Source: Euglena gracilis (lineage: Eukaryota). From it: DNA of 64,000 nucleotides. Shown here piece by piece: positions 1-39,180 of the stretch. The notes under the pieces were generated by a model. The model saw nothing but the letters and a program-made list of their open reading frames with translations, had not been told where the DNA came from and made no database searches. The stretch spans positions 37,743,703 through 37,807,702 of the forward strand of contig CP154954.1 of assembly GCA_039621445.1 (NCBI GenBank). Direction: 5' to 3'. The first letter of the stretch is position 1. Each line of letters opens with the position of its first letter. The translations under genes were made by a program, and so were the position numbers.

Positions 1-393
1 TACCAGGCACGATCCCAGCTCTGTAGGAAACCTGCAGAGTCTGGATCCGTCACAATCTGACGGCTCTGATGAACACAGCCTGACGATCGTGGCAGATCCT
101 ATGGGATTTAGCGACACGTATCACACGTGCCTGCGTGATCTCTTTTCCTCACAGGTGGTATTCTATTCTTCACATTCTGATTGTTTTGAAGTAAGAGGAC
201 AAACCTCTGAAAGGACTGAACACAACTGTGAACAGTGACTTGCCTTGTGATCTGTCTTAGCATAGGGGAATTGCGAAAAAGGGTTTTGTTACTCCAAGGA
301 TTTTTAGTCACCTAAGTAGGTGCGTACCAGGAGAAAGCGAAACAGGCTTTTCCGGGACAAAATGGGTCAAATGGAAGTCCTTGGACGTACACT
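1..393 (+). repeat. 5' LTR of element A (truncated by the window start)
   Basis: Colinear with 15612-16004, about 12 mismatches by manual count (~3%). Ends GGACGTACACT. Confidence 0.95.
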
Positions 394-403
394 TGGTAGC
401 AGA
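394..403 (+). promoter_or_regulatory. Primer-binding site TGGTAGCAGA (probably initiator tRNA-Met); second copy at 450-459
   Basis: Abuts the LTR end. Complementary to the ...TCTGCTACCA 3' end of initiator tRNA-Met in many eukaryotes. Confidence 0.85.
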
Positions 404-702: not shown

Positions 703-3700
703 ATGCAGAGCACAACCCCCAGCAACAAATTTGATTATGACTTGTTGATGAGTTCATTGACCAATCTTGATGATTATTGCGGGGATTGGAACGGTTCGAT
801 GGAAACAAGTTCCAATTCCCGACCCCCCAAGCAACGAGAAGACACATGACATCAATTGTCATTGTCACAAGGCGTCATTGTCATTGATTGCACGGGATGT
901 GGGTGGCAAAATGCCTTCCTCCATCCCGGTTCACCCATCATTGATTCGGCGAGGGGATGAACCCCTTGCACCGTTACACTTGGCAACTCATGTAACCCAT
1001 GAACAAAGTGAGGGGTACTTGCCCTTTGCTCTGTTCACTCCCAAAAGATCCCAGGTGGAAGCACCGGTGGGCCTTTTGGAGTGCAACTCGGTGGAAACAC
1101 CGTGTTTTCTCCACCCCCCCCCTCAATTTCCACCCCCCACACCATTTCACGCATTGCGGGATTACCCGCGGAAACTGCGGTTTTCCCTGCTTTGCCATGG
1201 AGCCCAGATATGTGTCTGTTGGTAACGGAAATCTCTGGTGCCGTTTCCATTGTGGAGGACTATGAGGAAGATTTGAGGGATAAACTCAATCCCGGTGATG
1301 TTTACCGTATTCTCGGAGAACTCCCAGCGGATCACCCGCCGAGCAAGCAAATTTTGCATGTCCACCAATGTTTTGCGGAATGTGCAACCATGCTCAACAA
1401 GGTTTTGCAGTTTGATGAGGACAATCAAAGGGTTGTCAACACCAAACTGGAATATTGCTGGAATTATTTGCAGGAAATCGGCAAATATTGCCAACACAAT
1501 TTTGAAAATGCGGGAAAGACCTTCAGCACTTTCGCGAAAGTGTTGACAGTATTTTGCGCATCCAACTTCCGCAAAACTTCCAACAAATCAGTGAAACACT
1601 GCATGAAGCGGAAACGCGGAATGATTTCAAGTTTCTGCATGTGCAAGATGGTATGAGCCATCTTTTTGCCAAAGTGGAATCATGTTCAACCACGCTACTG
1701 CAATTGCAGCACCAGTTACAAGCGCAAAATGCCACCCCCAAAAAGCCGAAAATCGGTACGTTTGTTGCGGTTGGGCATTTTGCAACACTCACTACTACTT
1801 TCCAAGAAGCCCAACAACGGATTTTGTATCTTTGCTCGGAAATAGAGCTTTTGAAGCAATGTCAAGCGGAAGTGCAAGAACATTTTGTTCCCCGTACGCA
1901 AATCCAGCTTTTGGAGGAACGAATTTTACACTTGGCGCAAAAATCCTGCCATTATGCCGCAAATCAGGACGGATTAACCACCCTGCACGCGAAAATTGCG
2001 GATTGCGCACAACGGCTGGATTTCGCGCAACAACAAATGCAAACGGACATTGGCGGTATTAATGCCACCGTTGTTGGTTTGCAGGAGCATGTTTCTGCAC
2101 TTTCCAAGCGAGTTCCCAACATTTGTGGTATTCAAGCCGCTACTGGGGAATTGCAAACCCGTTGTACCTTGTTGTCCACCACAGTGGCAGAAATTCGCGC
2201 ACTTCCCAATATCTCGCGCGCTCGGATATCCGAGTCACCGGAATTTCGCTCATTTTATAACAAAATGCTTGTTGACAACAAGGAAACCTTGCAAGCATTT
2301 TGTACGAGTTTGATTCAACTTGAGGAATCTATGAATCGGAATGCCCGATCCATGCAAGATGAGGTTTCACGGTTGGATGGACGAATTTCTGCGTTGTTGG
2401 AAACGCCAACCGCGCTAAAGTCGCGCACCACCTCGGAAACCCCCACCAATTCACCCCACCAATTACAAATTGTCTCAAATGCAGTAAAAGCGCTTGCTGG
2501 TCAACTCCGGAATGTGGAGGAGTCCCAAGGACACCTTACCCAAGAATTACACTTGGTTTCTGAAAAGTTACCACACTTGGACGATTTTTCCCGTTACCGC
2601 AAACGTGTTAGGCATCTGGAGACTGAGGTTGACCGTATTTGCGGCCAACTGCAGTTAGTGGAACATTTGGAAGAAACTGTGCATGACTTGTCCGCGAGTT
2701 TGGATAAATTGTCGACTCCGGTACCGGTTGTGCCACCACCCACCGCGGTAAGCGCTGCGGTTGGTATCCCAAATGTCCCGGAATCGCGTCCTCAAAATAC
2801 CCTTTCTGGAGTACGATTTTCTACATCCACCGCGAATTTGTACAACCACCCGCGAAAACGCGAATTGTACCACCTTTGAATTTGTCCACACCACAAACTC
2901 ACTTTTCACAACACATTTCTGATGGGAAAATTGGTACCGACTGGAAATTCGTGTCTCCACCAAGAAATTCAACATTCCAACCTTGTACGAGGAATGAGCC
3001 AACACCCCACACCTGGTATTGGTCATGTGTCGCGTTCGCGATCATACCAACCACCAATGGGTTCTGGATTACCAGATCACACATCGGGTTCTCGGCGGAA
3101 AACCCACCCCACCGGGAGAATTTAACCACTTTTTTCGCAATTCCCGCAGGAAAATTCTGCCACCCTTACACTTGGTGCGGTAAATCCTGCACGGGGTACA
3201 CATGTTGCGCAAGATCCGCGAAACGCGTTTGGTGTTAAGAATTACCCGGACGCAAACCCCTGGAATACCACCGAGGGTCAACGGGTTACTCAGAGAGACT
3301 TCAAGGGCACCATCGCAATCGCAAACAAGGTGAAACCCCAATGGGACGGGGATCCAACCACATGGAGAGAATTTTTTCGGGACTGGCAGTACTACTGGGC
3401 ACTCAAGGGACCCACCCAAGGCCCGAATCCCGAGGTAGTCAAGATGGAATTCATCAATTGCCTACCGAGGGAGGAGCGAGGACGCGCACGCAATTTGGTG
3501 ATACGTAATGGCGTATCATTCGATGACCTGGTGGAGCAATACGCTTCAACCAACTCAACGTTGGTCACCAGGATTACCCTGGAGAAGAAATGGCGACAAT
3601 CCGCGCCATCGGATCACAAATGGAAATCCATTGACCCTTGGTATGCCAAATGGTTAGCACTTGCTTCCCCAGTTGATGAACGTAGCGAGAAGCAAATGCG

Positions 3701-4731
3701 CGAACAATTCGATGCCGTTTTGTTGCATTTCACACCATCTCTGGTGAAGGATATCCATCACGAGGAGTTGGCAGGGCATGAGATGACTCTTGCCCAACGT
3801 TGGAATTATGTGTCAAAGCAACTCAAGCTCACACAAGTTTTGGGACAAATACAGTCCGCTTTCCAAACGCATCCCACCGCGGGAATCCCTGGGGGTGCAG
3901 TTAAAGCGTTGCAAAAATCACCCATGTCACCGAGATCACCCACCACGGGACAGAAAACGCGGAATCAGCGTTCTTCGGACCAAGGCACGGATAAACTGTG
4001 CTTTTTGTGCAACAAATCTGGTCACATGTCTCGGGAATGCCCGAATCCCGACGCGCGAAAGCGTATTGGAAGTCCAAGGGGCTCGACCTCCTCACGGGGA
4101 TCTGGTTCCTCGGCGTTTTCACGACAATCGCGCGTTTCACGGTCTTCGCAGCACCGCTTTAACGGTAGTGGGCCCAAGTCACCATGTCGCGTGATGGTCG
4201 GGAAACCCGCCCTTCTCGCTTTCGGTCACCTGGACCCTACCCGGAAACGGGATTCCAATCGCGACTCTTCACGATCTCGTTCGCGAAGTGGATCATCCTC
4301 TTCGCGCGAGTCACCGGAGAAACCCCGGTACACTGGTCATGGTCGACGGGAAACCCGTTCACCACGACGGTTTGATGGAAGAACGGAATATCGTTCTACC
4401 CGGTTATGCGGAATCCCGCCACAAATCCCGTTGTTCAGTTTGCGGTTCCAAAGACGACCACTCATCCAAATGTCCCAGATCCCGTTCCCCCCGGCCCGGC
4501 TACGGAAATCGCGGTAAGCGCCGCGAGGACCGTGGTAACTCCTCCAACCGGGAAAAAGTCAGTTTCAAGATATCTTGTTTGGAGGAGGACACCCCGGCTT
4601 CGGGCAGGGAGGGGGATGAAACCTCGGACGGGGAATTTAATGAGGCCCGAATGGCGGTGCGCTCATTGAGTTCCATCTATTCCACCAAAAAGTCCGTTGC
4701 CGGCTATGCGGCCGGTTCGGACTTGGAGTAG
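703..4731 (+). pseudogene. gag: gag of A: long N-terminal coiled-coil-like region, capsid-like core, two zinc knuckles with an RS-rich linker; frameshifted
   Basis: Starts MQST, similar to the B, C and D copies. Pieces at 1081-1656, 1554-2879, 3330-4517 and 4288-4731. Motifs KPQWDGDPTTW, CFLCNKSGHMSREC and CSVCGSKDDHSSKC. Ends SDLE-TAG. Confidence 0.85.
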
Positions 4732-7700
4732 GGGAGCCCGAGGTCCGAGGGCACCGACCTCTGGGCTGATGAACAGATGGAGGTAAGACCTGATCAACCT
4801 TGTCCCCCCTGCCCATCCGCCTTCACGGTCAGTACCCGTAATTATTGCGTGTCCCCTACCCCCACCCCACATTTCCGCTCGGAATGCTGAGCAAAGTAGG
4901 AAAGGGTTCATGGGAGAGCTGGGATGCAAACGTATTTCCGCCAAACCCTTCACTTTGCGTACCACCAATGGAACTACTCGTCCAAGCTGAAATACGCATT
5001 CAAAAAATCTGCACCAAAGTTAAAATTTTAATTGGCACTGGTTGTCGCATACCACTGATTTTTCGGTTGGGGTTGACACCGACCCCGCTCATGGAAAGCG
5101 CAAAGAAACCGATAAAAATTACAACACCCCCATGTGCGGTGGTGATTTGGGATGTGTGCTCGAGATACTCTTGCCCATCATTCCGAAGCATCACTCACAC
5201 CCCCCACAATTACAACATTTCACCAATATTTGGGGTTACGAGTCCGGAATTCACGGGTCTGACGTAATTTTGGGATACCCATTTTTACGCCAGTACCGAT
5301 TGGTTGTGGATTGCCACTCCCACGGTTTGCGCACAGCACCCTCCACTACAATGCCACCCAAACCACCATCACCGTTGGCGTCAACCATGACGACCACCCC
5401 TTTTTCAACACCGTTACCCACAATGGCAACACCGTTATCCAGCACACCAACCACCGTTTTCCACACCCGGGGTACGGATAAACCTCCCCCCTACCCAATG
5501 ACACACCTACATGCGTTCCACATGAGGTAGGGCAAGCGGGTAGCGGTACCCCCGCCGTTTCACTGGGTTACAAGACGAAAGCCCAAAAGCCTACAGTACG
5601 TACGGTGTCGAGTCCTCGCCCAGCCACACCACCACTCCGTTTCCCACCAATTGTGCCGAATGCAGGCACACCTGTACAAGACTCACCGGCTAATGCCATC
5701 GACACCCACTTACACGCACACCCGTCACACCATCACACTTCCTACCAATGTGTGCACTGCAGGAGAATTTCCACCCAAACGGATTTCGATTGTGGATGTT
5801 TAGTTGAAAACCCGACACTAATCGCTATTCCGAATACGGAATCCACACCCAAGGATACACTTGGTTGTAGCCCGCAATGCGCGGAGATACACCGAGTACT
5901 CCAACAACGCGGATTAGCCTCGTTGTTTGGAAACGCGAAAAGCGTCACACCTAATTTCAATCGCGATCACACTGGGTACGGATTTGATGCGGAATGGGGA
6001 AAACCCCAACCTTTCTAAACTCCCTTGGGATTACCCCTTGAGGCGGTGGAAGACAGCCCGGATGTTTGTGGATCCATTCATTGTGTTTCGTCACTCCTAC
6101 CCGTAAATCGGGTGAATGAATACGCGAAACGCGTATGGAATGCTTTCAATTTTGGCCAATATCGCATTTTGGAACGATGGTTTTCCAAAATCGCGACATT
6201 GGCTGATTCTTTTTATTTGGCATCGGAAATCAATGCCTTTTCATCAATGCACATGCCCTTTTGCCATGTCGTTGGTCACAACACTCCAACACATTTGATA
6301 AATTTTGGGGTGATACGGTGTTATGGATGCACCTTCCCCAAAACTTATCGCATGTGCGGTTGAGAAAATTCTGCGGGACGAAGCCCGTGGAGTTATTCTC
6401 ATACCCATCACTCCGGAAGCGGAAGGGTTCACCTAACTATCGTATGTTTTTTTTCATTGGTGGGATTAACCCACAAATGTACCGATTTTTGAGGATTTTT
6501 GTTGTAAAATATTACCACCCTTAAAAGAAATCATTTTTCGCGTATGTTTCTTCGATGCATTCGGAATGTCCGAATTCGCGTTGCCGAGGAAGCTCGGTAG
6601 CCCCAGGGATACCCTGGTGGTTTCCGCAGTCATCGAGAGTGCCGGTCAGCAAGCTAAGTCAGCCGAATTCTGTTTGCGGATCCCCCGAGAATTTCACGGC
6701 TTGCTGGAAAATCCAGTATACGCGTGCGACATCGACCCCGCGATACGCGGTCCGTTCGGTCTTTGTAAGATCGAGCTTAAGGAAGGAGCTAAGCCAATGC
6801 ACCGTAAATTTTTTCGTTGTTCGGGGGAACGCGAACAAGCTCTCAATGAAATGATTGAGAAGCTTATTCAGCGCAGGTGGATTGTACCCTCGAAAAGCGA
6901 GTGGACATCCCAGGCATATGTTGCTCCTAAACCTCCAGACCCCTCCGGTCAGAAGAAATGGAGACTGGTGCTGGATTACCGGTACCTGAACTCCCAAACA
7001 AGTGATTGTCCCTTCCCGCTCCCCCTGATCGAGGTTTTGGTCACCAGAAAATCGGAAAACCGGTTGTGGTCAATTTTCGATCTGGAGGACGGTTTTCACC
7101 AAATGCATTTGCACCATGACTCCCACCCATACACGGCATTCGTGACATCCAAGGGTGTGTACCAATGGACGGTACTCCCCATGGGTGTTAAGAATGGCCC
7201 AGCCATGTTTCAGCGCATGATACAATGGGTTCTACGCGATTTACCGTTTGCCATTGTGTACATTGATGATGTGCTGGTGGGAACACCACCACCATCCGCC
7301 AAAGCGAGTGGGGACATCCTCGTCACACACTTCCACCATGTTTGCGCAGTATTAACCGCTTTTCAAAAACATGTGCATTTCGCGAAAGGCGCGAAAATCC
7401 ACTTGTTTCGGATACTTATAAATTTTGCGGTCACATCCTCAGCAATGGACAACGGAAAGCCGCTCCGAGCAAACTGAAGCCATTAGGAAATGGAGCCCTG
7501 AGGTAATCAAAACCATTACTCACCTCAAAGGATTTTTGGGATTAGCCCAATATTACGCGATATATACGAAGGACTTCGCGAAAATCGCGGTGCCCCTCAC
7601 CAAACAGCTCAAAAACTGGGCTGTTGACAACACCAAAGTCATCTGGGATGACCAAATACGCGAGGCCCTTGAGAAAATCAAGGTTTTGCTTTTGGAGAAT

Positions 7701-9609
7701 GTTGTCCTCGAAATCGCGGACCCATACAAACCATACGTACTGGAAGTCGACAGAAGCGCTTACGCTGTTGGCGGAGATCATAGCCAGCATAACGCGCCGA
7801 ATGAACTCCGACCTGTGTCTTTCTTCAGCAGAAAGTTACAGGGCGACGACGGAAAAGGTCAAGTCAAGTGGAGTATACGCGAGAAAGAAACCTACGCAAT
7901 CGTGCTTATACTCCAGAAAATCCGAAGCTGGGTAGCCAGCAGTCTCGTCCAGAACCTCGTCAAGACCGACCATGAGAGTCTCCAACACTGGCACACCGAA
8001 GATTTGAACAAGGCCATGTTATCGGTCGGAAGGCGATGCAGATGGCATGAGTTCTTGAATCAATTCAACCTTGTGGTTATTTATTTCGTTGGTCACACAC
8101 AAAAGGTAGCGGATCCGCTCAGTCGGGCCCCTTTGTATTACCCCGGGAACCCGGATGAGGGAGACGTGACTTTTCACGGAAGTCAGGAAGCTGACGAATA
8201 CGCACGTCGAAACGACGCTGCGGATAATCTTTTGGACTCTTTTCCTGTTTCACAACTATTCCTGGTTGCACCAGTGCGCGGAAGGCGCCGACGTGGAAGC
8301 ACGTCCGGACCCCGGCGTATTACGCGCACGGAGTCCCCTTCCCCACTGTTCTTTCACGAATGGGATTATAGTCGTGATACGGTGTATGACACCATTGTCA
8401 GCAGACTTCGTAATGGCGAAGTGCTGGACAATTACACTCTTTCACCTTTACGGTTGGTTTTTCGCAATGAATCGGGTTACAAATATTATATCACCCAGGA
8501 CCTGGTTGATGATGTCATTTTATGCTATCACAACCATGGTCGCCCTGGGGCCCCCAAACTTCTTTCGTTGTTGGGCAGCAGGTATTGCACAACGCTGAGC
8601 GAGAAAGAGCTTTACTCACGCTGTTTGCTAATAGCGCAACGGTGTCAAATTTGTCAAGCGGTAAAACCACGCAGAGGTACCCCCCCTGGTACGATGGATT
8701 TTTTCCCCGTACCCGCTGACATTTTTACATCCCTCTGCATGGATTTTATGGAATTAGAACCGTGCAAAGGAACAGACACAAACTTTACGATTATGTTTTA
8801 TATTATATACGTACCGACCCAAAGGCAATGGTAGAGCCGAGGCAGCCGTGAAATCCGTCGCGAATATGCTTCGCCTTTCACTGGCTGACTCGCGCAGCAA
8901 CTGGATATCAGTTCTACCATGGTCTTTGTTTTATATCAATACCTTACCAGGGTTGGTTTTGCCTCACTCCCCCTATAAGTTAGTTTTCGGACGGGACCCT
9001 CCGGCCATAGGGGATGTCCCTTCGGGGAGACCCGCCCGAACGAGTGTCAGTTGCGAGGCCTGGTTTGTGGAAGTAGAAAATCTACGTTCTGCAGCCCAGA
9101 AGCGCGTCACTGATATTCATGCAACCAAACGGAAGCCGGTTTTGCAGAATTTCAAGTCACCTGTGTATAGTCCCGGTGACCGCGTGTGGGTGCGGAATAG
9201 CCGTACTCGCATGCACTCTTCCAAGCTGGACCCCCTCTGGCTCGGCCCCTGTGAAATCCTAGAAAGACTAGGTACCAGCGGGCGTTACAAGGTTGCATTA
9301 CCGAATGGTGTTGAGGACGTTCATATGGACGACTTCAACCCATACCTGTCGCCACCGGATGGGAAAATTTATCCCGTGTCTGCACTTCAAACCCCGATCC
9401 AGATAACCTGAGACGGACGATTTGTAGTCGATAAAATTATCGATCACACAATCGACAAATGTATGCACCTTTGGAAGGTCCGCTGGAAAGGGTATGGGCC
9501 CGAGGAGGACACTTGGGAGCCAGCAACCAGTTTTGTTGGGCATGTCCAACAGGATTGGAAGCTGTGGAACAAGAAGCATAACATTGATGTTTCCATGACA
9601 AGTTTTTGA
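4732..9609 (+). pseudogene. pol: pol of A (PR ~5020-5330, MTase-like ~6120-6560, RT ~6720-7480, RNase H ~7480-8130, IN ~8500-9400, chromodomain ~9420-9580); frameshifted
   Basis: KILIGTGC (DTG in B2 and D); [107 protein letters not shown]. The integrase core has an internal deletion near 8800. Confidence 0.92.
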
Positions 9610-9769
9610 GAACGCGTGGGAAACCCATGTTGATTTCTCTTCTTTTTATCATTGATTCTTATCATTCTTTCTTTCCGCAGACTTTTTAGCAAATCATACT
9701 CAAGCGGTTACCCTTACCAACTCAAAACCAACAACCAACCATCCCACCGTACCGACCCTGGGCGGCATC

Positions 9770-12700
9770 ATGCTGCCCGGTGGAAGGGAGCCAGGCGGAG
9801 GACCCCCTTACCACCCCACCACTCACCCTCAACCTGACCAGTCTGCCTACCGATACGGTATGCAGCCACCTGCACGGACTGCGGCTCCGGGAAACCCTGA
9901 AGCCAGCCCCTGTGGCAGGATGACCCCGATGTCCGAGGAAGCGCGGCCATCTCAGCCATCAGGCTCTCGCCGCCTCCCACCGTACGCGGGTGTGATGATC
10001 CACCGCACGGCGGAGACGATGAACCGGGTTGTACGTATGAGCGCAAACTCGGCTCCAGACCAACTCACCCAGGCATTGTGGGATGACCACTGCCGTAAAA
10101 CTTTGACCATCGCGAATACCCAGCCAGCCCTGTGGTGTATGCGCGCCCAGGCGACGATGACCGGTCTGGTGTATTACACCGACCCGGACACGTCGGGATT
10201 CGCGGCGGACATTACCATGCGTGACCTGGGCGTGGAAGTCCCGCCACAGGTAGCACGGCAGGCACCATCAGTTGGTACTTACACCGCACATTTTCGTGCT
10301 CACTCCCCCGGATTACCCGAGGAAGAGACAGTGGAAGCACCTGTCCGGAGTGAGCACCCACGTGTGAAAGAAAGTATTTTTCGATCCCCTGAGCGCATGC
10401 CCCGGCGGGATTATCCTGCGCAGGAGCATGTGTCTTACTACACCGTCTCTGGGGATTACCCCCAGGAGGCGCCAATGCCACGGGATCAGTATGTGTATCC
10501 ACCTCAACCCCACCCAACCATACCTGACCCTATGCCACGACGTTCTGGCGCAGGGAAACCCTCCCCCTACGTCTGACACTGCCCAAAGTGCTCGTCCGCG
10601 GGAAGCCGCGGCAGCGCCTCGTGCGGCACCAGTTCCCCCGGCACGGGATGAACCCGTTAACCCGTGGACTGGCCGGCCGTTCGAGACTGAGGATGAGCGT
10701 CAACAGTATGAATTTGCAGTGACAATCCAACGACAAATAGCACGTCGCCCCCCTGTTTCCACTGGCCGGGGATACCCTGCCCTGGCGGAAATGACACGAG
10801 AAGAGCGCCAGCAGTATGATGCTGCTGTGTCGGCACTCACAGGAGTCCCAGCTCCATCGCGATCAAGTCAACCAGCGCGACAGCATGACGGTGCTGTGGC
10901 GGAAGCGCCATCAGCACGACCCACAAGCTCTGCCGCCGGCGAGCGTGACCGCGGCCCGGAAAATCTGACGCCGCAGCCACAGCGCCGCTAGCCAAAGGTC
11001 GGAAAATCCGCCCGCTGCGATGCACGTCGACGCTGAGGAGGAAGCTCCGCCAGCGCCAGACGTGACGGCAAAACGGGCACGTCGGGAAACCCGACCATCC
11101 CCAGTCGCACCGGTTTACTCGAATCGTGGTGACGCTGAGCAGGAATTCCTGCACAGAATCCGTGACTTACCCTTTGTTTACGCCAGAAGACCCAGAATAC
11201 TGGGAGTACATTAACCCGGATTAGCGGGCGACATTCGAATGGCTGTCTAACACGAAGGGTAAGGGTAAAGGTAAGGGCAATGGTAAAGGAAAAGGAAAAG
11301 ACCAGGAGAGAGGCGGAAACGCTCCACCTGGCAAAGGCGGAAAAGCCGCCTGGCCAACTCCAGGCAAAGGCTGAAAATCTGCCGGACCCCGAGCAGGCAA
11401 GGGCGGATAAGCCACCGAACTTTCGAAAACGAAGGACGATGACGTTACTGTGGTATTCACCTACCTGCAGAAGATCTGGCCGAAAATCGACGAGGGTCTC
11501 CAGCAGTTTACAAACGTAAGCAACGTGATCCACCGACCACCCGATGCGGTGCTCGAAGTGGTGCAGAATCGTATGTATGATCACTGCAAAAGATTTTTCC
11601 ACGGTTCCGAACTTTATGCATTTGAGGGATACCCTCATTCAGATGAAGTTGTCCTGGACCAGATGTTCGGTTTCTGGGAGCTGTGGTTCTGGTTGGGATT
11701 CCCCTGCCAGAACTTCGGCATCTTTACCGACCGAAACGGTCAGACGTATGCCAACTGTTTGGGCACATGTCCTGACGACGAAACGTTCGTAGCACAGTTG
11801 AAGGAACTCTTCAACCACATGTATTCCGTCGGAGCACTTGGAATCCAGTGGAAATATTACCCCCTGCCGGCGAAACTCCAGGCGCAGGCCGCGGTAATGT
11901 TCACGCGCAATCTCCAAGTATACTTGGACAGCATGTATGGCACGCCGTTCAAGGTACTGGATGTGGACCTCGCGTACCCCCAGCGGTACAAACTGGAATG
12001 CCAGTTTTGCAAGGAAGTTCACATTATTGACTTCTGGGGTTTCCGTGAACGCGGAAGACCGCCTCCGACTGCCGAGAATGCCGGCAGCCAGCTGACCAGG
12101 AGATTACTCCTGCATCAGTGCCGGAATCCCAATATGGGAAGGCAAGACCGAAAGGTGCTGAAACAGCACCGGCAAAAAATTTATCTGCTGCAGCAGTACT
12201 GGCACAGGGCGTGGATTACCTACGTCCTGGAAGTCTACATTTATTTCCTGGAACAGATTAGCACCGATGTGGATATCCACAGGAAGTGGTTACCTCGGGG
12301 ATACACCGAGGTGTACGCCAGACCTCATGAGCCAGATCGACGCAGGATGAACCTGCGACCGGACTGGCAGGAGGCAGAAATCGGCCTCCCGGAACACCTG
12401 GATACCCAGTTCGGGGATATCCTCGACTGGCAGGAGTTCGAGGGTTTTTCGCAGCACGCAACATAGGCCGAACTCAGCATGCGGTCCCATTGCCTGCTTT
12501 CCTGGAAAACACAGGAGAGCATGGTATGGGATGGAACCTTCGATCCCAGTGGGAAGACCTCTGCCGGATCAACGAGGACGAGCCGCAACCTCCACCCGGA
12601 AGCTGGGTGAGAGCGTCGTGGCAACCCCCATACCCCAATTTTGACAAGTGTGAAAGTATATGCTTTTATCGCTTGTCAGATGCACAAGGGTGCTACAGGA

Positions 12701-15166
12701 GCGTAACAGACCCGCGTACTACAGCACAACTCCACACAGGGGACTACCCCCCGGAAGCGGAGGAGGAGGAGGAGGAGGAAGAGGTCCCCAAGGCCGAGGA
12801 TGAACCTCAGCCAGCGGAGCCCCCGGCACGGGAAACCCGTAGCCCATCCGTCGTGATGCTGGACACTGTGGCAGAAACTGCCCAGCGCCCAGGGTCGCCG
12901 GCAGGTGAAATGACACCTGCCCAAACTCACCCACCTCACTGAGCACAACAGGTGTACCGACCCCTCCGCGGGAAAACCCGCCGGAGACGGTACCCCACAC
13001 GCCTGAGGTGTTATGCCTCAAGCTCCCTGTTTCCGAGGAAACCCCGTCGGCAGAGGAGCCAGCGGAGGAGCCCACTTCAAGTGAAGCACCTGAACGGCGC
13101 ACCTCGCTGGGCGGACGCGTACTCGGTGATTTGCGATCACTGATCGCAGTTGTCACTCCACGTGGCGCTACGGGCAGTTCTTCCACGGCTGCGGCGGAAG
13201 CTGCCCAATCGGTGGAAGACATACCTGACACAACAGCCATGGTGGAGTATGAACCTCCCCCAGCAGCGGCGCCACCACCGGTGTCGGAAGCGACACGGAC
13301 GGAAGGCGAACAGGCAGCAACGGCGGTGGAGACAACAGCAACCGTGCCAGTACGGGATGAACTTGTATCAGCACCGGTACCACCAGCCAAGGCACGGGAT
13401 GAACCCACACCTCAGCGCATTTCCACCGCCACTGCATGAAAACATTTAGGCACACGGACACCGGCGCCTGGAAAACAGGCCGAGCGGACGTCCATGCCCC
13501 CACCACAGGCTCAACCAGCGCGAAGTGCGCCGGCGAAGCCTACACCCACACCATCCCCCGCGGCTGCCCCTGGGAAACCCACGGAAGCCCGAAGGAACGC
13601 GTAGGACGACCCTCAGCTCGGGAAACCCCTGCTGAAGGTCAACGACGCTCGGCGTCGGGGAGAAGACCCCCGTCCCAAGCGTCACCACGCACCTGGGCAA
13701 GAAAGAGCGACGCCGATCGGCGGCCCTCGGATGCTCCGGAAACCGGAAGTCCGAAGGCCCCGGCAAAATCAAAGCCGGGCGCCGCACCCTGTAAGCCCAC
13801 ACCGAAATCTGGTGATCAGCCCCACCGAAAGGCGGTGGTGGTGCTGGCAGCCAGAGTGCTGCATCCTCTTCTCGGGGATCAACCTCGGGACAAGGATTCA
13901 CGCCCCTCACAGCCGAAACCTACGTCAAAGTGGCAGGGAAAATCCCGCACCTCAACAGCCGAGACACCTTCGGAAGACGAAGTTATCATCGACTGGAACG
14001 CGGTCAATCAGGATGATCCTGAGATTCATGACCTGAAAATTAGGTAAGTGATGATCGACCACAAACTGAGGACACCGCAATGGCTCAACCGGTGGATTGA
14101 GCCACTGTTCTGTCAGGGCCGAAAATGGTCCTTTGATCAGAACGTGGCCTGGACGTATTACAATTCCAGATCCCCCGGTGTTTTGGCCCAATACTTTGGT
14201 GAGGAATTCGTCATCGACAAAACAACGGAAAACCGTTTTGTGTGGCTTTGCACTGTATGCCACAAGATGTACAACAGTGCACCTGACCTGGGATTACCCC
14301 TCGTCCATGTGTGCAACCCTGTGGATCGGAAATCGTTCCATAAGGATGTATACATCACCAACTCTGCCGCCTTGGTATGCGCCAAGTGCGTGGACAGTTG
14401 GACCCACAAACACAATTTTTGCTACACCGAGCGAGACGGTAGGAATGTACCGATACTCTGCGTCAATTGCCTTCGAGGTACTTCTGGCAAACTGCGGAAG
14501 GCGCAGTTCGTACAATCGTGCCAAGTGCCCAGAAGCCACTTGAGGTCCACCTCCACCTTGAACAAAAAGTACAAGGATTTTTTCAAGTACGCCAACCTCA
14601 AGCTTGACGACTACCGCCACACGGGAATGGCCCGTGGGTAGCAGATCGACAGTGGGGCGATACGCCTCGCGGCTGAGGAAGCAGGGGTAAGGTTACCTGA
14701 CCTCTGGGAGACAGCGGACAGGGAAAAGATATTTTTCCGCCTGTACAAAACCCAGGACCGAAACGGTCGCTGGTGCCCGCCACAATGGCCACCCGAAGAA
14801 CACGGGATGACCTGGAAAGACTGGCTTGGGGGCGTATTACGACCCCATACAGTCCGCGCGGAATGTGCGTATCACACGCCAATTGACTTACACCAGGGGA
14901 ATGCTCCGCAGGTGTCAGCCAACCATCCACGGATGAAGTACTTCATCTGGCCAGCCACTCTGCCCAGTAAATTCTGGGAGAAGCTGCAGTGGTTCCTCGC
15001 AGGAAGAGCGAGCGCAACCAAGCAGACAGTCCCCGAAGGATGGGTTCAGGACTGGATGGTCCCTGATTTCGAATACGAATCGCCAGTAACCTGGCTTGTA
15101 GATAGGCCACCACCACCACAATTCCAGATGGTCCTTGTGGAAGATCCCTTGGACTCCCGCCATTGA
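9770..15166 (+). pseudogene. Extra 3' ORF of A (~1800 codons reconstructed, unknown function; Pro-rich linkers and Cys/His-rich domains)
   Basis: Consecutive ORFs 9770-10576, 10428-10991, 11450-12466, 12490-12942, 13008-13439, 13436-14047, 14048-14641 and 14807-15166. They show block-wise amino-acid similarity to the equivalent region of B1 and B2. Confidence 0.75.
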
Positions 15167-15597
15167 TTATTGGCGGCTGGAACGGATGTAATGCCGAAAC
15201 GGCATTACCAGGCCCATGCAAGGTAAGTGCCTTCATGAAGCCTGTACATCCTTAAACTGCCCCCCCCCTTCCACGCCTCTCCCCTGGTGTTTTCAGCGAA
15301 TACGCTTGACCAACCCCGCGTGCCATTGGCACACCCAAAGTGGGTGGACGGGACACTATGACAGGAAACCTGCCAGCCCCGTTTCCCACAGTGGGATTTT
15401 TCACACCGCTAAGCCGAAACGGCTAATAGGTAACCGCGATAAGCGGTAACCTTTTGCGCGTTTTCAGGTTTTTGGGTTGCGCGCCTGTCGTGAAAAGAGA
15501 GCCGTGTTCTGGAAAACAGAAACCAATCAGGACTGTGTCTGAAATCCGGACGGGTCCTGGGATGACCTGGTCCAAGAAGGAAATCGGGCATAGCCCT

Positions 15598-15607
15598 GGA
15601 AGGGGGA
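15598..15607 (+). promoter_or_regulatory. Polypurine tract of A
   Basis: GGAAGGGGGA immediately before the 3' LTR start TGTGTACC. Confidence 0.9.
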
Positions 15608-16004
15608 TGTGTACCAGGCACGATCCCAGCTCTGTAGGAAACCTGCGGAGTCTGGATCCGTCACAATCTGACGGCTGTGATGAACACAGCCTGACGAAGT
15701 TGGCAGATCCTATGGGAATTAGCGACACGTATCACACGTGCCTCCGTGATCTCTTTTCCTCACAGGTGGTATTCTATTCTTCACATTCTGATTGTTTTGA
15801 CGTAAGAGGACAAACCTCTGAAAGGACTGAACACGACTGTGAACAGTGACTTGCCTTGTGATCTGTCTTAGCATAGGGGAATTGGGAAAAAGGGTTTTGT
15901 TACTCCAAGGATTTTTAGTCACCTAAGTAGGTGCGTACCAGGAGAAAGCGAAACAGGCTTTTCCGGGACAAAAGGGGTCAAAGGGAAGTCCTTGGACGTA
16001 CACT
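15608..16004 (+). repeat. 3' LTR of element A (397 bp, TGTGTAC...GTACACT)
   Basis: Direct repeat of 1-393; follows the PPT. Confidence 0.95.
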
Positions 16005-18443
16005 ATTCGACACCCTGTGTCGACTAAAATTTTGGCTTGTGCACAGATTTTTTGAGCCTTGATTTTCGCTTTGACCAAAAGTTCCTTGGGGGTACACAAA
16101 GCGAAGGGTCAGGTGTAAAAAAAAAAGTTGTTGCACCCACTGTTTCATGCCCCTTTGCTTACTTTGCTCATCATTCCAAGCAAACATTTTGGCGCGGGGA
16201 GTAGAGGACCCGTACATGTTTCGGGTACCGACCAAAAAAACCAATGGGCAGGGGGGGCAGGAGTGATCAGTTCGTACCTCCATCTGTTCGTCAGCCCAGA
16301 GATCCGTGCCCTCAGACCTCGGGCTCCCCTACTTCATATCGTAGTCGGCCTTTGGGCGTATGGTGGAATTCCCAGAATGAATTGCGCGAATCACGCGAAT
16401 CACATCCCTGTCTTTTGCAGGCTCATCTCCGGTGCTCTCCTCCTCCTCCCTGCCCGAAGCCAGGGCATTTTCCTCGATAGCGATTATTTTGAAACCAACC
16501 CGCCGCCTATTGGCAGAACCGCGATTGGAAACGCGACGACCCTGTCTAGGGCGGGGAGATCGGGAACGGGGGCACGTGGGTGAATGGTGGTCTTTAGACC
16601 CACGAATGGAACAACGGTTCCGCGATTGTGATTGCCTCTTGGCAACACAATGCCGCGGGGAGCAGGTACTCGCTCGACCACAATTCCATCTTAACTACCT
16701 TCGGGTTCTCATCTTGGGTTGGTCCACTAAAAACTCTAATAATATTCCCAGTCGCGGAAAAATTGTTTCCAGTCCTGGTGTGGGTGCACGGGTTGCCGCA
16801 TTGCGGTTCTGCAAATCCGCGACTGCGGTTCGGATTTCCATTGCGTCATTTTGCCACTGTTGTTGCAATTTACCAGCCTACTCGCGATATTCGTGAGTTG
16901 GGTGTAGAAACTCGCAATTTCAGCGGGAATTTCGCTACATTGACACAATTTCTGCTCCAATCGAGTATGTCTTTCCTCCAATTGTTGCAAATGCGTGCGG
17001 GGGGTAAAAATCTCATTCGCTTGGGCAGAAAAGTAGGCAAAATTAGCGGCATCACCGCCCAACTGGAAAATGTGCTGTTGCGCTCCTGAAATGCGGTTGC
17101 AAGTGTGTAGAAGTGCTGCAATGTGATAAATTGTCACAAATCGGGATTTTTGATTGGGGTTTCATGCAACCTTTGCTGCAATTGCGAAAAAACTGCCGTA
17201 ATTGGCTCCAATTGATGGTATAAAGCTTGCAAACTATGTTGCATGTTGGAAAAAATCGCATCATTGCGGGATTGTGACTCACAAATGGCATCACGCACTC
17301 TTTGGAAGTGTTGTGGCAAATGTGCCTGCAAATGTGTGTAAAAAACTTGACGCAATGTTGTTAGGTCCACATTGGTGGTTTGAAAATTTGTTTGGCAATA
17401 TTCGCCAACATCACGCACATATCTCCAAAGATAATCCAGCTTGTTTTCTAAAACCTTTTGGTTGTTTTCATCAAAATACAAAACATTGTTAAGTGTCATA
17501 GCGCAATAGGCCACATTTGACTCTGAGGCGAATACGCTACGGCAAATTTTTGTAGAGGGTGGGTTAGAAACACCATGTTTTTTTCCAGCCCCCACCCTCT
17601 GCGCTTCCCCCCACAACTCCGATTGGATAATCGCCAGCACCACCTGAAACGGCTCCCTCTCGTGCATTGCCATGGCTCTCGCAGATACGTTTGACGGTTC
17701 CCTCTTATAAAAGTCCCACAGAGTCCATGAGCAGTGTTGTGGAAGGGTTGGAAAATATTTCCCCTCATCCCATTACCGTCATTCAGCGTATAGTCGCAAA
17801 TCTCCCAGTGGAACACCCGCTTATGCGGCAAATCTCCTATGGCACCAACGCGAGATCTCGCCGGGGAGGAATAGGTGTTATACGATCGGCTTTCCAACAA
17901 AAAGGGGTTCTGCCGGTTGAGCATTGGTTTGCTCGTTAGAGCTCGACGCCGATAGGTGTGGGGATGCTCATTGGGCGGGGGGGGAATTACTCGACACAAA
18001 CACGGATAGGTGTGCCACACGCGGGGAAGGAGGATTACCTTGAAATGAGTCAAGGCTTGTGTACCCCTATGGGGTTGAGGACGCTCAATAGAACTGGTCA
18101 GTGGTGCTGCAGGTTCAAGTCCTCGAATTGAACCAATAAATGCAGCGTAGTCAATTGGCACTGTGCTCTGCATTTTTGCAGGCAAGACACAAAAACGAAA
18201 TGTAGATTCCGATGAAAAAGTGCAGAAATAAAAGGTAAAAGAGGGGAAAGTATAAAACGTAAGCAGGGACCCAAATTCTCAGGTTTGAAGCAAGGCATAC
18301 GGCGAATCGTCAGAGGACATGTCCGTGCGTACAGCTTTGGCCGGAAACGGCTTGTAGTGCCTGTAATCGCCTATAGCCAGGGCACCACTCGACCGACTGC
18401 GGTCAAAAAGATCGAAAACCTAAACTGCCACCAAGTGTACGTC
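16005..18443 (-). mobile_element. Internally deleted Gypsy remnant, family D (LTR stub, PBS, gag, start of pol), interrupted by A in the protease
   Basis: LTR-end stub GACGTACACT at 18443-18434 with PBS-like TGGTGGCAG. gag start MQST at 18173, QFFRDWEYY, TAG plus hairpin at 16331, and KILVDTGCR ending at the A junction. Confidence 0.85.
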
Positions 18444-20427: not shown

Positions 20428-20740
20428 AGTGTACGTCTGATTCCCAAATACCCTTTCCCCATTACCAAAAAGCCTTCGCTTTCACCTTGGCCCACCTACT
20501 TGGGAACTGATTCCTTTTCCCCCTTCCCAAGAAGCAAAACACAGAGCAGCAATGCAGGGAGGACGGACTGGATATCCAAGTCCGGTCCGAAGAAAAAGTA
20601 AGGACAAAGGAGAAAACAGAATAGAATAAATAATACCACCTGTGGAGAGAGAAGAGGCACCCATTAGGAAATCCTAATAGGATCTGCTTCCATCCTAACT
20701 TCCTCAAATGAAGGTGGCAAAAGCATACGCCTGGTACACA
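20428..20740 (-). repeat. 3' LTR of B1, with PPT at 20741-20750
   Basis: Similar to 39181-39498. Termini TGTGTACC/GACGTACACT on the minus strand, with GGGAGGGGGA adjacent. Confidence 0.9.
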
Positions 20741-21549
20741 TCCCCCTCCCAAGGCTATGTCCGAGTTACCCTTTGGACCAGGCATTCTGGCCACAGGGAT
20801 TTCGGACACAGACCTGGTATGTGGGAGGTGCACCCTGGCGCATCCACAGGGGCCCTTTCCGTCGCACAGGGGTCCACTCAAGTGGGGGGGGGCGGAAAGG
20901 AGGGGGACCCAAAAAGACCAAAATGCACAAAATGGTTTCACCTATTCTGCGGTGGCTTATGGCTGTATAGTATATTATAGCCCACTGGGGAAAATGGGGC
21001 TGGCAGGTTTCCCTGCCAATCAAACCCATCCACCCAGTTTGGGTGCGCCAAAGGCACTTGGGGTTGGGTCCATGGGCATTCCAGGAAAACCCATGGGGAG
21101 GGTGTGGAAGGAGGGGCCCTCTGACCAGTCAAACCTGGGCAGGGCGCATGGCCAGTCAAATCTGACCACGCAAAAGGAAATCCTACTCTACAAAACCAAC
21201 TGCCGGCGACAGCATTTGCCCGGGGGGGGAAATAGAGAGGAGTGGGGGGTTGGCTTAGGCCAAAAAGGTTGTGCTGTCTGGCAGCATTATGGCGTCAAAC
21301 GGTCGAAAAGAAAATTTGAAAGAAAAGAAGCCGTCGGCCCTGTGCGCTGCCTGTCGCACGCCCGCCAGAGGGGAGAGGGGGGAGGGGTGTGCATGCATGC
21401 GCACGGAATCCTGCACATGGCAGCATCCCGGTGGGAACTTACTAGCGGCGAATAACGCAAAGGGTCTTAGAAGGGGTTGTTCGGGCGAATACCCAAACAG
21501 GGTGTCAGGCAAATACCTGACGAGGTTTCTAAAAGACGCCGCATTGGCG

Positions 21550-23032
21550 CTAACAGCCGCCGCACCTGCCTTTATCCGCTGGGCGTTCGCGCACCTCACG
21601 CCAGTAGGCGTGTTGAGCGTCCCCTAATGAGTCCTCAACCAACTCCAGTTGGCGTGGGGACCGCTGCGGAGCTGATTCAGTCCGGATGGTATTTTGATCC
21701 GGAGCGTTGATATCAAAGGATAGGGTCCCCCAGTACTTGATCCAACTGTCCGGCAACTTCTCCCTGGTACGGTCAGCTTGATGCTGAAGGTACCGCTGGA
21801 GCTGTTCCCAGAAAATTCTGGGCAGCATCACCAGCCAGATGATGTAATTCACCCGGGGGTTATTCGCAGGCACCTGCGGGGACATCCCCGGGGTCTGCTT
21901 GAAGTTGACCTCATACATCCTTGGGAATTGGGAAAGGGGAATTGGGAATCAGACGTACACTAAAGCACCACCGAAATGTGGCGCTGGAGGTCAGACTGGC
22001 CTAAAGGCCCTACGACAATGCACGACTTTTCGGCCGTTGCATCGTCCGGGTACGGCCAGAGCAGACCGAAAGGTAAGGCTCGTCGCCGACAGGCCCAATC
22101 TTCCGCCGGATCGACGGATGAGGAGCTTGATGAACCTGCTTCACCTCCTGTGTCTGCGGATGCACAGCTTCTGGACTCAGGATATCCTGACCAGACTAGG
22201 CACCGTTGAAGAGAGGACGAAGAAAATGGCTGCTATTAGGCACCAGAAAGGGTCACTAAATCGACGAATTCAGCCCGTCTTCGTCCGAGGAGAACCTTTC
22301 CACTATGTCCCGGAACATACCTGGACAGCTTGGAACTGGTGCTCACCCAGAGTACTGGCACAGTACTTTGGTGAGGACTGTGTGTTGGGTTTCCAGCACG
22401 GCACGTCCTTTGCCTGGACGTGCACCGTGTGCCACCATGTGCGGCACAACCAACCGCTTGTGCAAGCGGCCGGTGCAATCCACGACGTTCCATCACAGGA
22501 CATATGTTGCGAACTGCGTGGCGCTCGTATGTTGCCAGTGCCTGAACGCCTGGAAGCAAAGCTTGAACTACTCCTACAGTGAGAATGCTCACGACATGGA
22601 TATCCCTGCCTTGCGCATCAACTGTGTAGGGGCCAAGTTCCTGCAGACTGCAGATGGAGCAGTCACGATCATTGTCCCCCAGCACTGGGAGACACTGGAG
22701 AAGTGGAAGAAGGAGTACAAGCAGGTGGAAGGCCGCCTGAAGCACTCCGACTTCCGAAAGGTAGAAAGCCACCGCCACACGGGAATGGCCCGTGAGTTCC
22801 AGATCGACGCTGGGGCAATGCGCGTCGCCTTCGAGGAGCATGCCAGGGTAAGAATGCCTTATCTCTGGACTGATGGCGACTGGGAGACACAGGTTTACCC
22901 ACTGTTCTCCAAGCGTGAGCATGGCGGATACACCTTGCCACTGTGGCCTCCTGAAGAACACAATTTGGTGGACTTCAGAGGTTGGTTGGCGGCTGTATTA
23001 CGGCCCCATACCGCAAGAGCTCGGACAGCGAG
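21550..23032. pseudogene. C-terminal part of the B1 extra ORF (21962-23032 inverted to +, 21550-21920 on -)
   Basis: WTCTVCHH, VCCQCLNAW and YRHTGMAR-like blocks match 24556-25353 and 14048-14641. Confidence 0.75.
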
Positions 23033-23527
23033 GTACTTTCCCCCCGGGGCAAATGCTGTCGCCGGCAGTTGGTTTTGTAGAGTAGGATTTCCTTTTGCGT
23101 GGTCAGGTTTGACTGGCCATGCGCCCTGCCCAGGTTTGACTGGTCAGAGGCCCCCTCCTTCCACACCCTCCCCATGGGTTTTCCTGGAATGCCCATGGAC
23201 CCAACCCCAAGTACCTTGGGCACACCCAAACTGGGTGGATGGGTTTGCTTGGCAAGGAAACCTGCCAGCCCCAATTTCCCCAGTGGGCTATAATATACTA
23301 TATACCCATAAGCCACCGCAGAATAGGTGAAACCATTTTGCGCGTTTTGGGCTTTTTGGGTCCCCTCCTTTCCTCCCCCACTTTTTTTGAGTGGACCCCT
23401 GTGCGACGGAAAGGGCCCCTATGGATGCGCCAGGGTGCACCTCCCACATACCAGGTCTGTGTCCGAAATCCCTGTGGCCAGAATGCCTGGTCCAAAGGGG
23501 AAACCGGGCATAGCCCTGGGAGGGGGA

Positions 23528-23793
23528 TGTGTACCAGGTGTATGCTTCTGTCCCTTTCCGTTGAGGAAGTTAGGATGGAAGCAGATCCTATTAGGATTTC
23601 CTAATGGGTGCCTCTTCTCTCTCCACAGGTGGTATTCTTTTATATTCTGTTTGTCTTTCCTTTTCTCCGGACCGGACTTGGTTATCCAGTCCGTCCTCCC
23701 TGCATTGCTCCGTGCTTTGCTTCTTGGGAAGTTGGAAAAGGGTTTTTACTGTTACTCTGATTTTCAGTTCCCAAGTCGGTGCGCCAAGGCGAA
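23528..23793 (+). repeat. Main part of the B2 3' LTR (inverted); the last 41 bp are at 21921-21961
   Basis: Reverse complement of most of 39181-39498, preceded by PPT GGGAGGGGGA. Confidence 0.9.
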
Positions 23794-24120
23794 GAGAGGA
23801 GTGGGGGGTTGGCTTAGGCCAGAAGAGTTGTGCTGTCTGGAGCCTTAAGGCCTCAAACGGCCGAAAAGAAAAGAAAGGGAAAGGAAAAGAGGCCGTCGAC
23901 CCTGTGCGCTGTGTGTCGCTCGCCCGCGAGAGGGGAGAGGGGAGAGGGGTGTGCATGCATGCGCACGGAATCCTGCACATGGCAGCATCCCGGTGGGAAC
24001 TTACTAGCGGCGAACACCGCAAAGGGTCTTCGAAGGGGTTGTTCGGGCGAATACCCAAACAGGGTGTCAGGCGAATACCTGACGAGGGTGCTGAACGCCG
24101 CATTGGCGCTCACAGACACA

Positions 24121-29607: not shown

Positions 29608-29806
29608 GATGCTACCCGAACGACGACGACAACTAAGGGTAACCTTGTTGTCAGTCGCTTTGAGTGCTGGTGCACTGAAAAAGCAAGGCTTCTATCATAA
29701 TCAAAAACTCCGTGATAAAGATAGAGAAAGAAGGAAGTGCAGGGGGGGGGGGTATAAACGTGAAACATTCACATAAAACACACGCATTCTCCAAAACGAA
29801 ATCGTT

Positions 29807-37900: not shown

Positions 37901-38901
37901 CCACTGCTGGATGTTGCAGACGAGGAATCTCGTGCATGCAACTGTTGTTGCAAATGCAACAACGCGGATGAACAGGACTCCATTTGTCCCGATAACCGTT
38001 GTAGTGAGTCATGCAAGTGCAGAAACTTGCAGTCATTCCGCGTTTCCGCTTCATGCATGCATTCACTAATTTGCCGGAAGTGTTGCGGGAGTTGTTGGCA
38101 CATTTTGTCAAAGGTTACCCGAAAGTTTGCAAGGTCAATACACGCACTTTCGAAATTCCTCTGGCAATATTTGCCAACTTCCTGCAAGCAACTCCAGCAG
38201 AATTCCAGCTTGGTGAAGACATGTTTTTGGTTTTCCTCATCGAACTGGAGCACTTTGTTCAGTGTGGTTGCGGAATCTGCAACGCATTGTTGCACATGGT
38301 TGAACTGCCTCACAAGAGGGTGATCCCCTGGAAGCCGAGCCACGATATCCTGCACATCCTCAGCAGTGAGGAGCTCACCAGTGCCCTTCCCATAGCCAAC
38401 CATGGGTTGGGACGTACCGGAGAATTCCGGTACCACTAGGCGAGTCTCCGGTGGCCAAGGTAGTGCGGGATAACACCCAAGATCGGGTGGTGGTTGCAAA
38501 GCTCTGTAAGGGCTTGCCGGTGGAAGAACGGGTGGTGGTTGAAAGAAACACGGGGTTTCCAGTCCACCATCACCAGAAAAACCCGGTGGCGGAATCACCA
38601 CGGGTCTCTCAGGTGTGCGCAGCTGCACCATTGCCGCAGACAGAGGCGAATACCTCCGTTGTGGCAAGGTGAGTGCGGAAGAGGCCGTATTAGTCTCTGA
38701 AGCCAAAGATGTATCGCCGACCACTGTCAATGATGACAAACGTTGCAATCTTGACAATTGAGCCAATTGTGCCTCATCGGCGTGGGAACTGGAAGCACTT
38801 TCACATAAAAGCTTCCAATCCCCAGTATCTTGGTCAATGTCTTGCAATGATGCCTCGAATATGGCTTAGTTGAATTGATGGTTGGGGCCTGTGCTTTGCA
38901 T
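34937..38901 (-). pseudogene. gag: gag of B2 (segment ~36198-37345 inverted to +)
   Basis: MQST start at 38901. ORFs 37060-38847 (-), 36203-36922 and 36745-37345 (+), 35683-36197 and 34999-35670 (-). Knuckles xFFCNKSGHMSREC and CSLCGSSDHHSSKC. Confidence 0.87.
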
Positions 38902-39170: not shown

Positions 39171-39180
39171 TCTGCTACCA
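39171..39180 (-). promoter_or_regulatory. PBS of B2 (TGGTAGCAGA); second copy at 39106-39115
   Basis: Abuts the 5' LTR end. Confidence 0.85.

Follow-up and report, generated by a model that had tools for sequence, protein, structure and literature searches.

The prevailing view is that long terminal repeat (LTR) retrotransposons require no genes other than gag and pol. The question raised by the locus described here is what a third, very long open reading frame (ORF), termed ORF3, is doing between pol and the 3' LTR of such elements in Euglena gracilis. The window analysed is a stretch of 64,000 nucleotides (contig CP154954.1, positions 37,743,703 to 37,807,702). Self-comparison resolved it as a nest of LTR retrotransposons, with element A on the forward strand and, on the reverse strand, element B1 and its 92% identical relative B2. 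The best explanation of the data is that ORF3 is a genuine, formerly selected third gene of a ~16-19 kb chromodomain Ty3/gypsy-type LTR lineage with a Dam-like methyltransferase, a reading to which a probability of about 0.6 is assigned.

ORF3 is an integral part of the element. It lies inside the LTRs in sense orientation, between the pol stop codon (9607-9609 in A) and the polypurine tract, and occupies the same site in both families. All three copies visible in the window (A, B1 and B2, representing two families) carry it at this place, the position of the sense additional ORFs (aORFs) of LTR retrotransposons. Both families start at a conserved ATG located 160-200 nt past the pol stop; the protein opens with 'MLPG(G/R)...' and the sequence context of the start, GCATCATGCT, is conserved in A, B1 and B2. 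Neither direct nor inverted repeats were found flanking ORF3 (around 9300-15800). A nested insertion with termini of its own was rejected on this ground, and with it the separately inserted element bearing its own target site duplication that the original prediction, a reading of the bare sequence, had named as the outcome to exclude.

Comparison of A 9400-15700 with the window by tblastx yielded collinear, sense-frame matches to B1 (29616 to 24259, reverse strand) and to B2. Between A and B1, 21 collinear high-scoring segment pairs (HSPs), greedily filtered before coverage and identity were counted, covered 839 of 1,799 codons at 45.5% amino-acid identity. The HSPs clustered as three blocks, and the Pro-rich linkers between the blocks gave no alignment of A with B, in agreement with the original prediction of three blocks conserved at the protein level and separated by diverging linkers; the motifs quoted for these blocks are present. 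Around block 2, element A is open from 11411 to 12466 (351 aa). The ORF3 copies of the window end shortly after block 3 with '...VEDPL.D'. A short motif, 'SLGGRVLG', is also kept between A (13080-13217, forward) and B (26108-26245, reverse) in an otherwise divergent linker. Chance similarity can be excluded, since a profile of block 3 matches independent public proteins at E = 6.5e-28 and weaker.

A search of 1.84 billion representative proteins with the block-3 profile returned 19 matches at E ≤ 1e-3, 11 of them at E ≤ 1e-10. Two giant relatives, referred to here as P0020 (2,207 aa, encoded on an 18.5-kb contig) and P0021 (2,294 aa, on a 9.3-kb contig, a cluster-mate of the profile match P0012), are intact. 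They have three regions in common at 29-34% identity. Against the window (tblastn) they match only at blocks 2 and 3, and their third, C-terminal region of about 500 aa is missing from the window copies. Block 1 found no match better than E = 0.1 in either protein and is known from A and B only. Both proteins are called as free-standing, with M followed by a Pro/Gly-rich N-terminus like that of the window copies, and contain no reverse transcriptase (RT) or integrase (IN) domain. Other members of the family likewise show N-termini rich in Pro and Gly, as well as repeats of Lys and Gly. The short public fragments P0004, P0006, P0007 and P0013 share the window-type ending 'PQV.ANHP(R/K)', in place of which P0010, P0012, P0015, P0020 and P0021 have 'QCPQNQ'. 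Word-indexed protein searches gave a single match each for block 3 (P0001) and block 2 (P0002). P0001 is transcriptome-derived and 95% identical to B1 block 3 over all 230 of its residues; its source label, 'EG_transcript_25142', is taken by us to denote an E. gracilis transcriptome. Narrow-alignment locus scans of metagenome and viral contigs confirmed no locus. No ORF3 piece, nor P0020 or P0021, was matched in Pfam, NCBIfam or PHROGs; Pfam produced nothing beyond sub-threshold noise (Zn_ribbon_10, 13.1 bits, E = 0.08; cut-off 24.2 bits). Judged by these searches, ORF3 belongs to an orphan family that resembles no known protein family and has intact giant members elsewhere.

The existence of these external intact relatives in the protein database is the strongest argument for selection. 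The comparison of non-synonymous with synonymous change between A and B that was recommended alongside the original prediction gave, for the ORF3 HSPs of A and B1, pN 0.374, pS 0.719 (saturated) and an omega of about 0.22, not near 1, a value that is biased downward by the choice of HSPs for protein similarity and is of qualitative use only. The same pipeline applied to pol as a control gave pN 0.151, pS 0.504 and an omega of about 0.20. Amino-acid identity between A and B was 45.5% for ORF3 and 72.8% for pol. Differences among the B copies at codon positions 1, 2 and 3 numbered 130, 96 and 159 in ORF3 (p = 4e-4) and 32, 27 and 55 in pol (p = 0.003). Evolution of ORF3 under purifying selection is thus supported. 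The earlier description of a selected accessory protein is supported by its integral position in two families, the lack of termini of its own, blocks kept over saturated synonymous sites and the intact relatives.

All ORF3 copies in the window are dead. In A, at least seven frame changes occur along the homologous path, as judged by HSP frames, together with in-frame stops at 14045-14047 and 14639-14641. The longest open stretch of B1 is formed by its first 695 codons (29607-27520); beyond these lie four frame changes, one of which is an 11-nt deletion at 27443 relative to B2, and at least two in-frame stops, including a TAA at 24558-24556. B2 has many private indels. The lesions in the window copies are private: P0002, 85% identical to A, reads through the site of an A frameshift near 12445 and an extra inverted copy of the B block-3 region has GAA at the position of the B1 TAA. 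The original prediction of an ORF of ~1800 codons between pol and the 3' untranslated region (UTR) in both families therefore held for position and homology and failed for the frame itself, which is open over ~1,800 codons in none of A, B1 and B2.

Several points weigh against the interpretation of ORF3 as a selected third gene with a definable role, in addition to the downward bias of omega. With no intact copy in the window, none here can be active. Three of the four B-copy sub-comparisons of ORF3 were not significant alone (p = 0.70, 0.054 and 0.60) and only the largest was. The link of P0020 and P0021 to retrotransposons is presumptive. Zinc binding, as described below, is likewise putative, with conserved Cys/His residues and a model of medium quality (mean pLDDT 59) as its only basis, and no known family, fold or motif points to a particular activity.

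The protein specified by ORF3 has a length of about 1,800 aa and is made up of folded modules with long linkers, Pro-rich or rich in Lys and Gly, between them. Block 3 has ten Cys/His residues (C91, C94, H95, H105, C107, C125, C130, C133, C158 and C161), arranged as CxxCH, HxC, Cx4CxxC and CxNC and each kept in 13/15 to 15/15 of the sequences covering it. An AF2 model of block 3 (410 residues, 20-row alignment) had a mean predicted local distance difference test score (pLDDT) of 59.2. Values of 75-89 were obtained for most 10-residue blocks of residues 71-180 (seven of the nine within 71-160), with dips to 53 and 49 near residues 111-120 and 141-150, and residues about 320-350 reached about 77-85. 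For the segment carrying the conserved Cys/His residues the pLDDT was about 80-89. Block 2 also contains a conserved CxxC...HxC pair, recognised by eye, and its model was poor (pLDDT 45.6). Block 3 resembles the cross-brace fingers of the RING, ZZ and PHD types in that its putative ligands, of which there are eight or more, occur in pairs as CxxC and HxC; it differs from them in having neither a Pfam match nor a significant fold match. The spacing of about 22 residues between the second and third ligand pairs is not canonical for RING or PHD.

Searches by profile and by fold gave nothing significant. Against PDB sequences the block-3 profile had no match at E ≤ 10, and P0020 produced only noise (E = 0.42). 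The block-3 model returned a best E of 1.3 with Foldseek against PDB, a best Z of 2.7 with VIA-align against 48,161 chains (ZZ domain, Z = 2.0) and a best E of 0.21 against BFVD, to the baculovirus protein PE38. In the ESM Atlas block 3 fell into a RING-like neighbourhood at a sub-threshold 0.80 and block 2 had no usable match. The RING/ZZ-like hints from the Atlas (0.80), PE38 (E = 0.21) and the ZZ domain (Z = 2.0) are below significance and constitute a lead only. A clear match to a known env or accessory family, for which such searches had been recommended alongside the original prediction, was accordingly absent from Pfam, PDB and Foldseek. Block 3 is likely to be a zinc module, as yet unclassified: the predicted zinc-binding character is made plausible by ten conserved Cys/His residues and a moderately confident modelled fold, and no zinc-finger family could be named by sequence or by fold.

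A single neutral clock is expected to govern every part of an element. Among four-fold degenerate sites, counted in codons whose first two bases are identical in A and B, 141 of 202 differed between the families in ORF3 (0.70, saturated), the corresponding counts being 226 of 593 for pol (0.38) and 24 of 61 for gag (0.39). Since the ORF3 sites are saturated and those of pol are not, ORF3 and gag-pol have different histories. Nucleotide identity between A and B was 0.78 in the last 400 nt of pol, 0.49 in the spacer between pol and ORF3 (0.44 for a shuffled-sequence control) and 0.56-0.58 over ORF3, before recovering to 0.69 across the distal 3' UTR. The G+C content of third codon positions (GC3) was 0.63 in ORF3 against 0.52 in pol. 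The simplest reading of these sequence differences would be recombination, in which either the ORF3 cassette or gag-pol was exchanged between element lineages. Domain exchange among Euglena retroelements is remarked upon in passages of a recent preprint (bioRxiv 10.64898/2026.05.21.726589), which fits an exchange of this kind.

How ORF3 might be expressed is suggested by the spacer. In A, its polypyrimidine tract is followed by AG dinucleotides at 9679-9680, 9688-9689 and 9703-9704, which together could provide a candidate splice acceptor; the candidate AG of B1 is at about 29676-29675. In none of A, B1 and B2 does an ATG intervene between the spacer AGs and the beginning of ORF3, leaving a leader of 65-90 nt. 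Trans-splicing of capped leaders is described as common in Euglenozoa (PMC2920757), and ORF3 may on this evidence have a trans-spliced mRNA of its own. The B-family block-3 sequence does occur in a transcriptome, as P0001. Depth in four raw RNA runs, matched to B1 24100-39500 at 92% likeness, ranged over about 0-3.7 per bin for each strand, with reads from both; among the read ends listed none lay near the ORF3 start, at a depth too thin to weigh a separate mRNA. Run X21, from a size-fractionated RNA library, covered all 30 B1 bins, most of them on both strands, and the other three runs covered 15-22 bins. Low-level transcription of the family in both directions, or DNA carry-over, could explain this coverage.

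A mechanism can be proposed in which the ORF3 protein would be made from a separate mRNA, most simply by trans-splicing of a spliced leader to the polypyrimidine-AG site that precedes the AUG by ~65-90 nt. The protein would then work in trans on behalf of the element. It would be a zinc-containing adaptor or scaffold through which host factors of restriction, silencing or chromatin are engaged, and would not serve as an envelope protein. As a whole, this mechanism of an own mRNA and a zinc scaffold or adaptor acting on host factors is tentative, and the narrower roles considered in the original prediction (anti-silencing, chromatin targeting or partnership with the methyltransferase) are speculation. 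A bolder and more doubtful proposal is that ORF3 founds a new class of accessory protein, namely a very large cassette open to exchange, in which an unclassified zinc module and its partner domains would hijack or disarm host chromatin, silencing or restriction. Such a protein may, for example, be a new E3-like adaptor beside the element's own adenine methyltransferase and chromodomain, and may move between lineages in the manner of env.

Other explanations of ORF3 differ in what they make of its position. The start of ORF3 only 160-200 nt after the pol stop, in the orientation of pol, would suit a C-terminal extension of Pol produced by splicing, frameshifting or readthrough, and the RNA depth is too low to reveal any transcript structure. 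Such an extension is nevertheless quite unlikely, given a spacer that is not conserved (0.49 identity against 0.44 when shuffled), a B1 stop codon in frame with ORF3 that lies closely upstream of 29691 and separates the pol stop from the ATG, an ATG and context conserved in all three copies, and free-standing, M-initiated relatives that lack RT and IN domains. The location between pol and the 3' LTR is also that of env, and the much faster evolution than pol (45.5% against 72.8% amino-acid identity) and cassette-like exchange, as seen with retroviral env genes, could point to an env substitute for cell exit, cell-to-cell spread or horizontal transfer. Against this, a Kyte-Doolittle scan over 19 residues, a crude measure, peaked at 1.31 in P0020 and 1.09 in P0021, neither reaching 1.6. 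The N-termini of ORF3 (MLPGRGPGPGPP..., MGPPPPRTQPPY..., MSNPWNYPPGWG...) are Pro/Gly/Tyr-rich, without the hydrophobic core of a signal peptide, and the scan gave no transmembrane anchor of the env type. The sole hydrophobic stretch, found in B1 right after 'SLGGRVLG', scores 1.82 and its equivalent in A 0.92. No env or glycoprotein family in Pfam matched the ORF3 pieces at E ≤ 0.01 to 1, or P0020 and P0021 at E ≤ 0.1. Because P0020 and P0021 have no hydrophobic window and the B1 segment is not kept in A, an envelope-type membrane protein is unlikely, and little credence is given to the env substitute as an explanation of ORF3. The earlier statement that ORF3 does not look like env is upheld by the lack of a hydrophobic anchor and of a Pfam env match; the companion statement, that it has no signal peptide or transmembrane segment, stands on the crude scan only and is qualified by the B1 segment.

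The orphan sequence with no retroelement signature, the GC3 in excess of that of pol (0.63 against 0.52) and a history unlike that of gag-pol might instead mark ORF3 as a passenger of no use to the element, either a gene transduced from the host or foreign DNA nested within the element. This is very unlikely. ORF3 has no terminal repeats of its own, and it must have been long retained, since site, orientation and start agree between two families that are saturated at the four-fold sites of ORF3 (141/202). A novel type of enzyme, for example one modifying nucleic acid or chromatin and complementing the Dam-like methyltransferase and chromodomain, would account for polar motifs of blocks 2 and 3 strictly kept outside the Cys/His set (N311 and Q307, each 12/12; G303, 14/14; P321, 12/12) and for the further conserved block of about 500 aa in the relatives; related Euglena elements are moreover reported to gather epigenetic enzymes (bioRxiv 10.64898/2026.05.21.726589). 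The absence of any catalytic family in Pfam, NCBIfam, PHROGs and PDB, and the replacement of the H of 'NHP' by Q in 5/12 sequences, which speaks against a strictly conserved catalytic histidine there, make an enzyme unlikely. A formerly selected accessory gene of the element remains the preferred explanation.

The coordinates of ORF3, its blocks and the surrounding element features are collected in the table.

Table. Coordinates of ORF3 copies, conserved blocks and element features in the window.
Feature	Position	Strand	Remarks
Element A 5' LTR	1-393	+	97% identity to 3' LTR; ends TGTG...TACA
Primer-binding-site-like sequence	394-403	+	TGGTAGCAGA; directly after A 5' LTR
A pol-ORF3 spacer	9610-9769	+	polypyrimidine tract about 9634-9676
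Element A ORF3, decayed	9770-15166	+	conserved ATG at 9770; TGA at 15164-15166
A block 1	10058-10471	+	PPYAG...QALWD.HC...
A block 2	11537-12813	+	LYAFEG...FWELWFWLG...YPQRY.L.CxxC...DFWGF...VYI
A block 3	14084-15085	+	Cys/His module CxxCH...HxC...Cx4CxxC...CxNC and C-terminal 'PQV.ANHPRM.Y.IWP'
A 3' UTR	15167-15608	+	terminates in polypurine tract
Polypurine tract	15599-15608	+	GGAAGGGGGA; ends A 3' UTR, abuts 3' LTR
Element A 3' LTR	15609-16004	+	TGTG...TACA; 97% match to 1-393
Extra inverted copy of B ORF3 block-3 region	21962-23032	+	91% identity to B1 25548-24482
Element B1 ORF3	24121-29607	-	ATG at 29607; final stop 24123-24121
B1 block 3	24259-25248	-	95% identity to P0001
B1 block 2	26605-27828	-	split over three frames
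B1 block 1	28888-29286	-	HSPs to A
B1 Dam-like domain	about 33210-33446, within 32732-34594	-	PF05869
B2 ORF3, apparent continuation	39501-40908	-	separate fragment
Element B2 ORF3	48733-52206	-	ATG at 52206; about 92% identity to B1; many indels

LTR ends, primer-binding site and polypurine tract are common to elements A and B1. Pfam searches of the gag-pol pieces identified RVT_1 (E = 1.7e-22), RT_RNaseH_2 (E = 5e-24), Integrase_H2C2 (E = 0.027), SH3_Tf2-1, zf-CCHC and Chromo (PF00385, E = 1.6e-10). A Dam-like N6-adenine methyltransferase domain (PF05869) lies in B1 pol, 5' of RT, with E = 7.8e-5 and a score of 22.9 bits, under the Pfam cut-off of 28.1. No cytosine methyltransferase (DNMT) was seen in the window pieces scanned. 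RT, RNase H, parts of integrase, a chromodomain and a Dam-like domain are thus found together inside LTRs, as in the DAM-LTR elements of Euglena. The gag-region ORFs at 1506-2879 (+) and 37060-38847 (-) gave Pfam matches of coiled-coil type, that of A (NPV_P10, 33.6 bits) exceeding its cut-off of 29.8; heptad composition is a more probable cause of these matches than homology. Neither Rfam nor tRNA scanning of the whole window gave a match.

The 3' end of B1 is rearranged, in a region that spans 20428-25548 and also involves 39499-40908. Its segments 25548-24482, 24479-23793 and 23741-23034 are repeated at 91-92% identity at 21962-23032 (inverted), 21920-21234 (direct) and 20513-21234 (inverted), respectively. 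The breakpoint at 25546/25548 corresponds to the point where another B-type piece of ORF3 (39501-40544) ends; this piece adjoins the B1 5' LTR at 39498. The arrangement suggests that two nested B copies underwent inversion or recombination with each other; alternatively, it is possibly an artefact of the assembly. Another repeat family is present as two copies in opposite orientation, 83-91% identical in parts, at 40909-48732 and about 55428-64000, the former of which splits B2 ORF3. At the nucleotide level it weakly resembles the gag-proximal part of A and B, and it contains a 482-aa ORF of coiled-coil-like character at 46967-48415 (-); an ORF3 homologue was not detected in either copy by tblastx or tblastn. 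Immediately after the A 3' LTR, an inverted fragment at 16005-16336 shows 75% identity with A 4724-5051 and 76% with B1 34617-34944, in the region between gag and the methyltransferase, and is a remnant of yet another element.

Chromodomain DAM-LTR or 'EpiLTR' elements with adenine and cytosine methyltransferases were described from E. gracilis in May 2026 (bioRxiv 10.64898/2026.05.21.726589). The window elements share with them a Ty3/gypsy-like LTR backbone, a chromodomain and a Dam-like domain in pol. They differ in ORF3: the main text of the preprint gives DAM, DNMT and chromo domains and no large ORF after pol, and its supplementary figures may show more. The backbone is therefore already known, and ORF3 is without description in the literature searched, which for the preprint means the main text. 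In plants, sense aORFs between pol and the 3' LTR characterise whole families, are mostly of unknown function and have been called ENV-like (PMC7264820). ORF3 resembles them in position, orientation and presence in the family copies, and by this analogy would be placed, positionally, with the additional ORFs of LTR retrotransposons. It differs in lacking membrane features or common sequence and in its size of about 1,800-2,300 aa, roughly equal to or above that of the whole pol region. CERV of the Caenorhabditis elegans element Cer1, a family-specific accessory protein of Ty3/gypsy type made from a spliced subgenomic mRNA, is nuclear and involved in genomic RNA export (PMC10309623). By functional analogy it may serve as a working model for the expression and use of ORF3; no sequence relationship with ORF3 was seen, no direct comparison having been made, and the splicing and function known for CERV are only proposed for ORF3.

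A conserved third gene at least as large as the pol region, maintained over saturated synonymous sites, implies that these elements depend on a further function beyond gag and pol. The contrast of saturated ORF3 with moderately diverged gag-pol is a clear example of retroelements evolving by the exchange of modules, and a family with no recognisable relatives is a source of new protein domains, including a probable new zinc module. Because the main text of the DAM-LTR preprint, in the passages searched, is without ORF3, the gene may be a missing part of how these elements handle a heavily methylated host genome.

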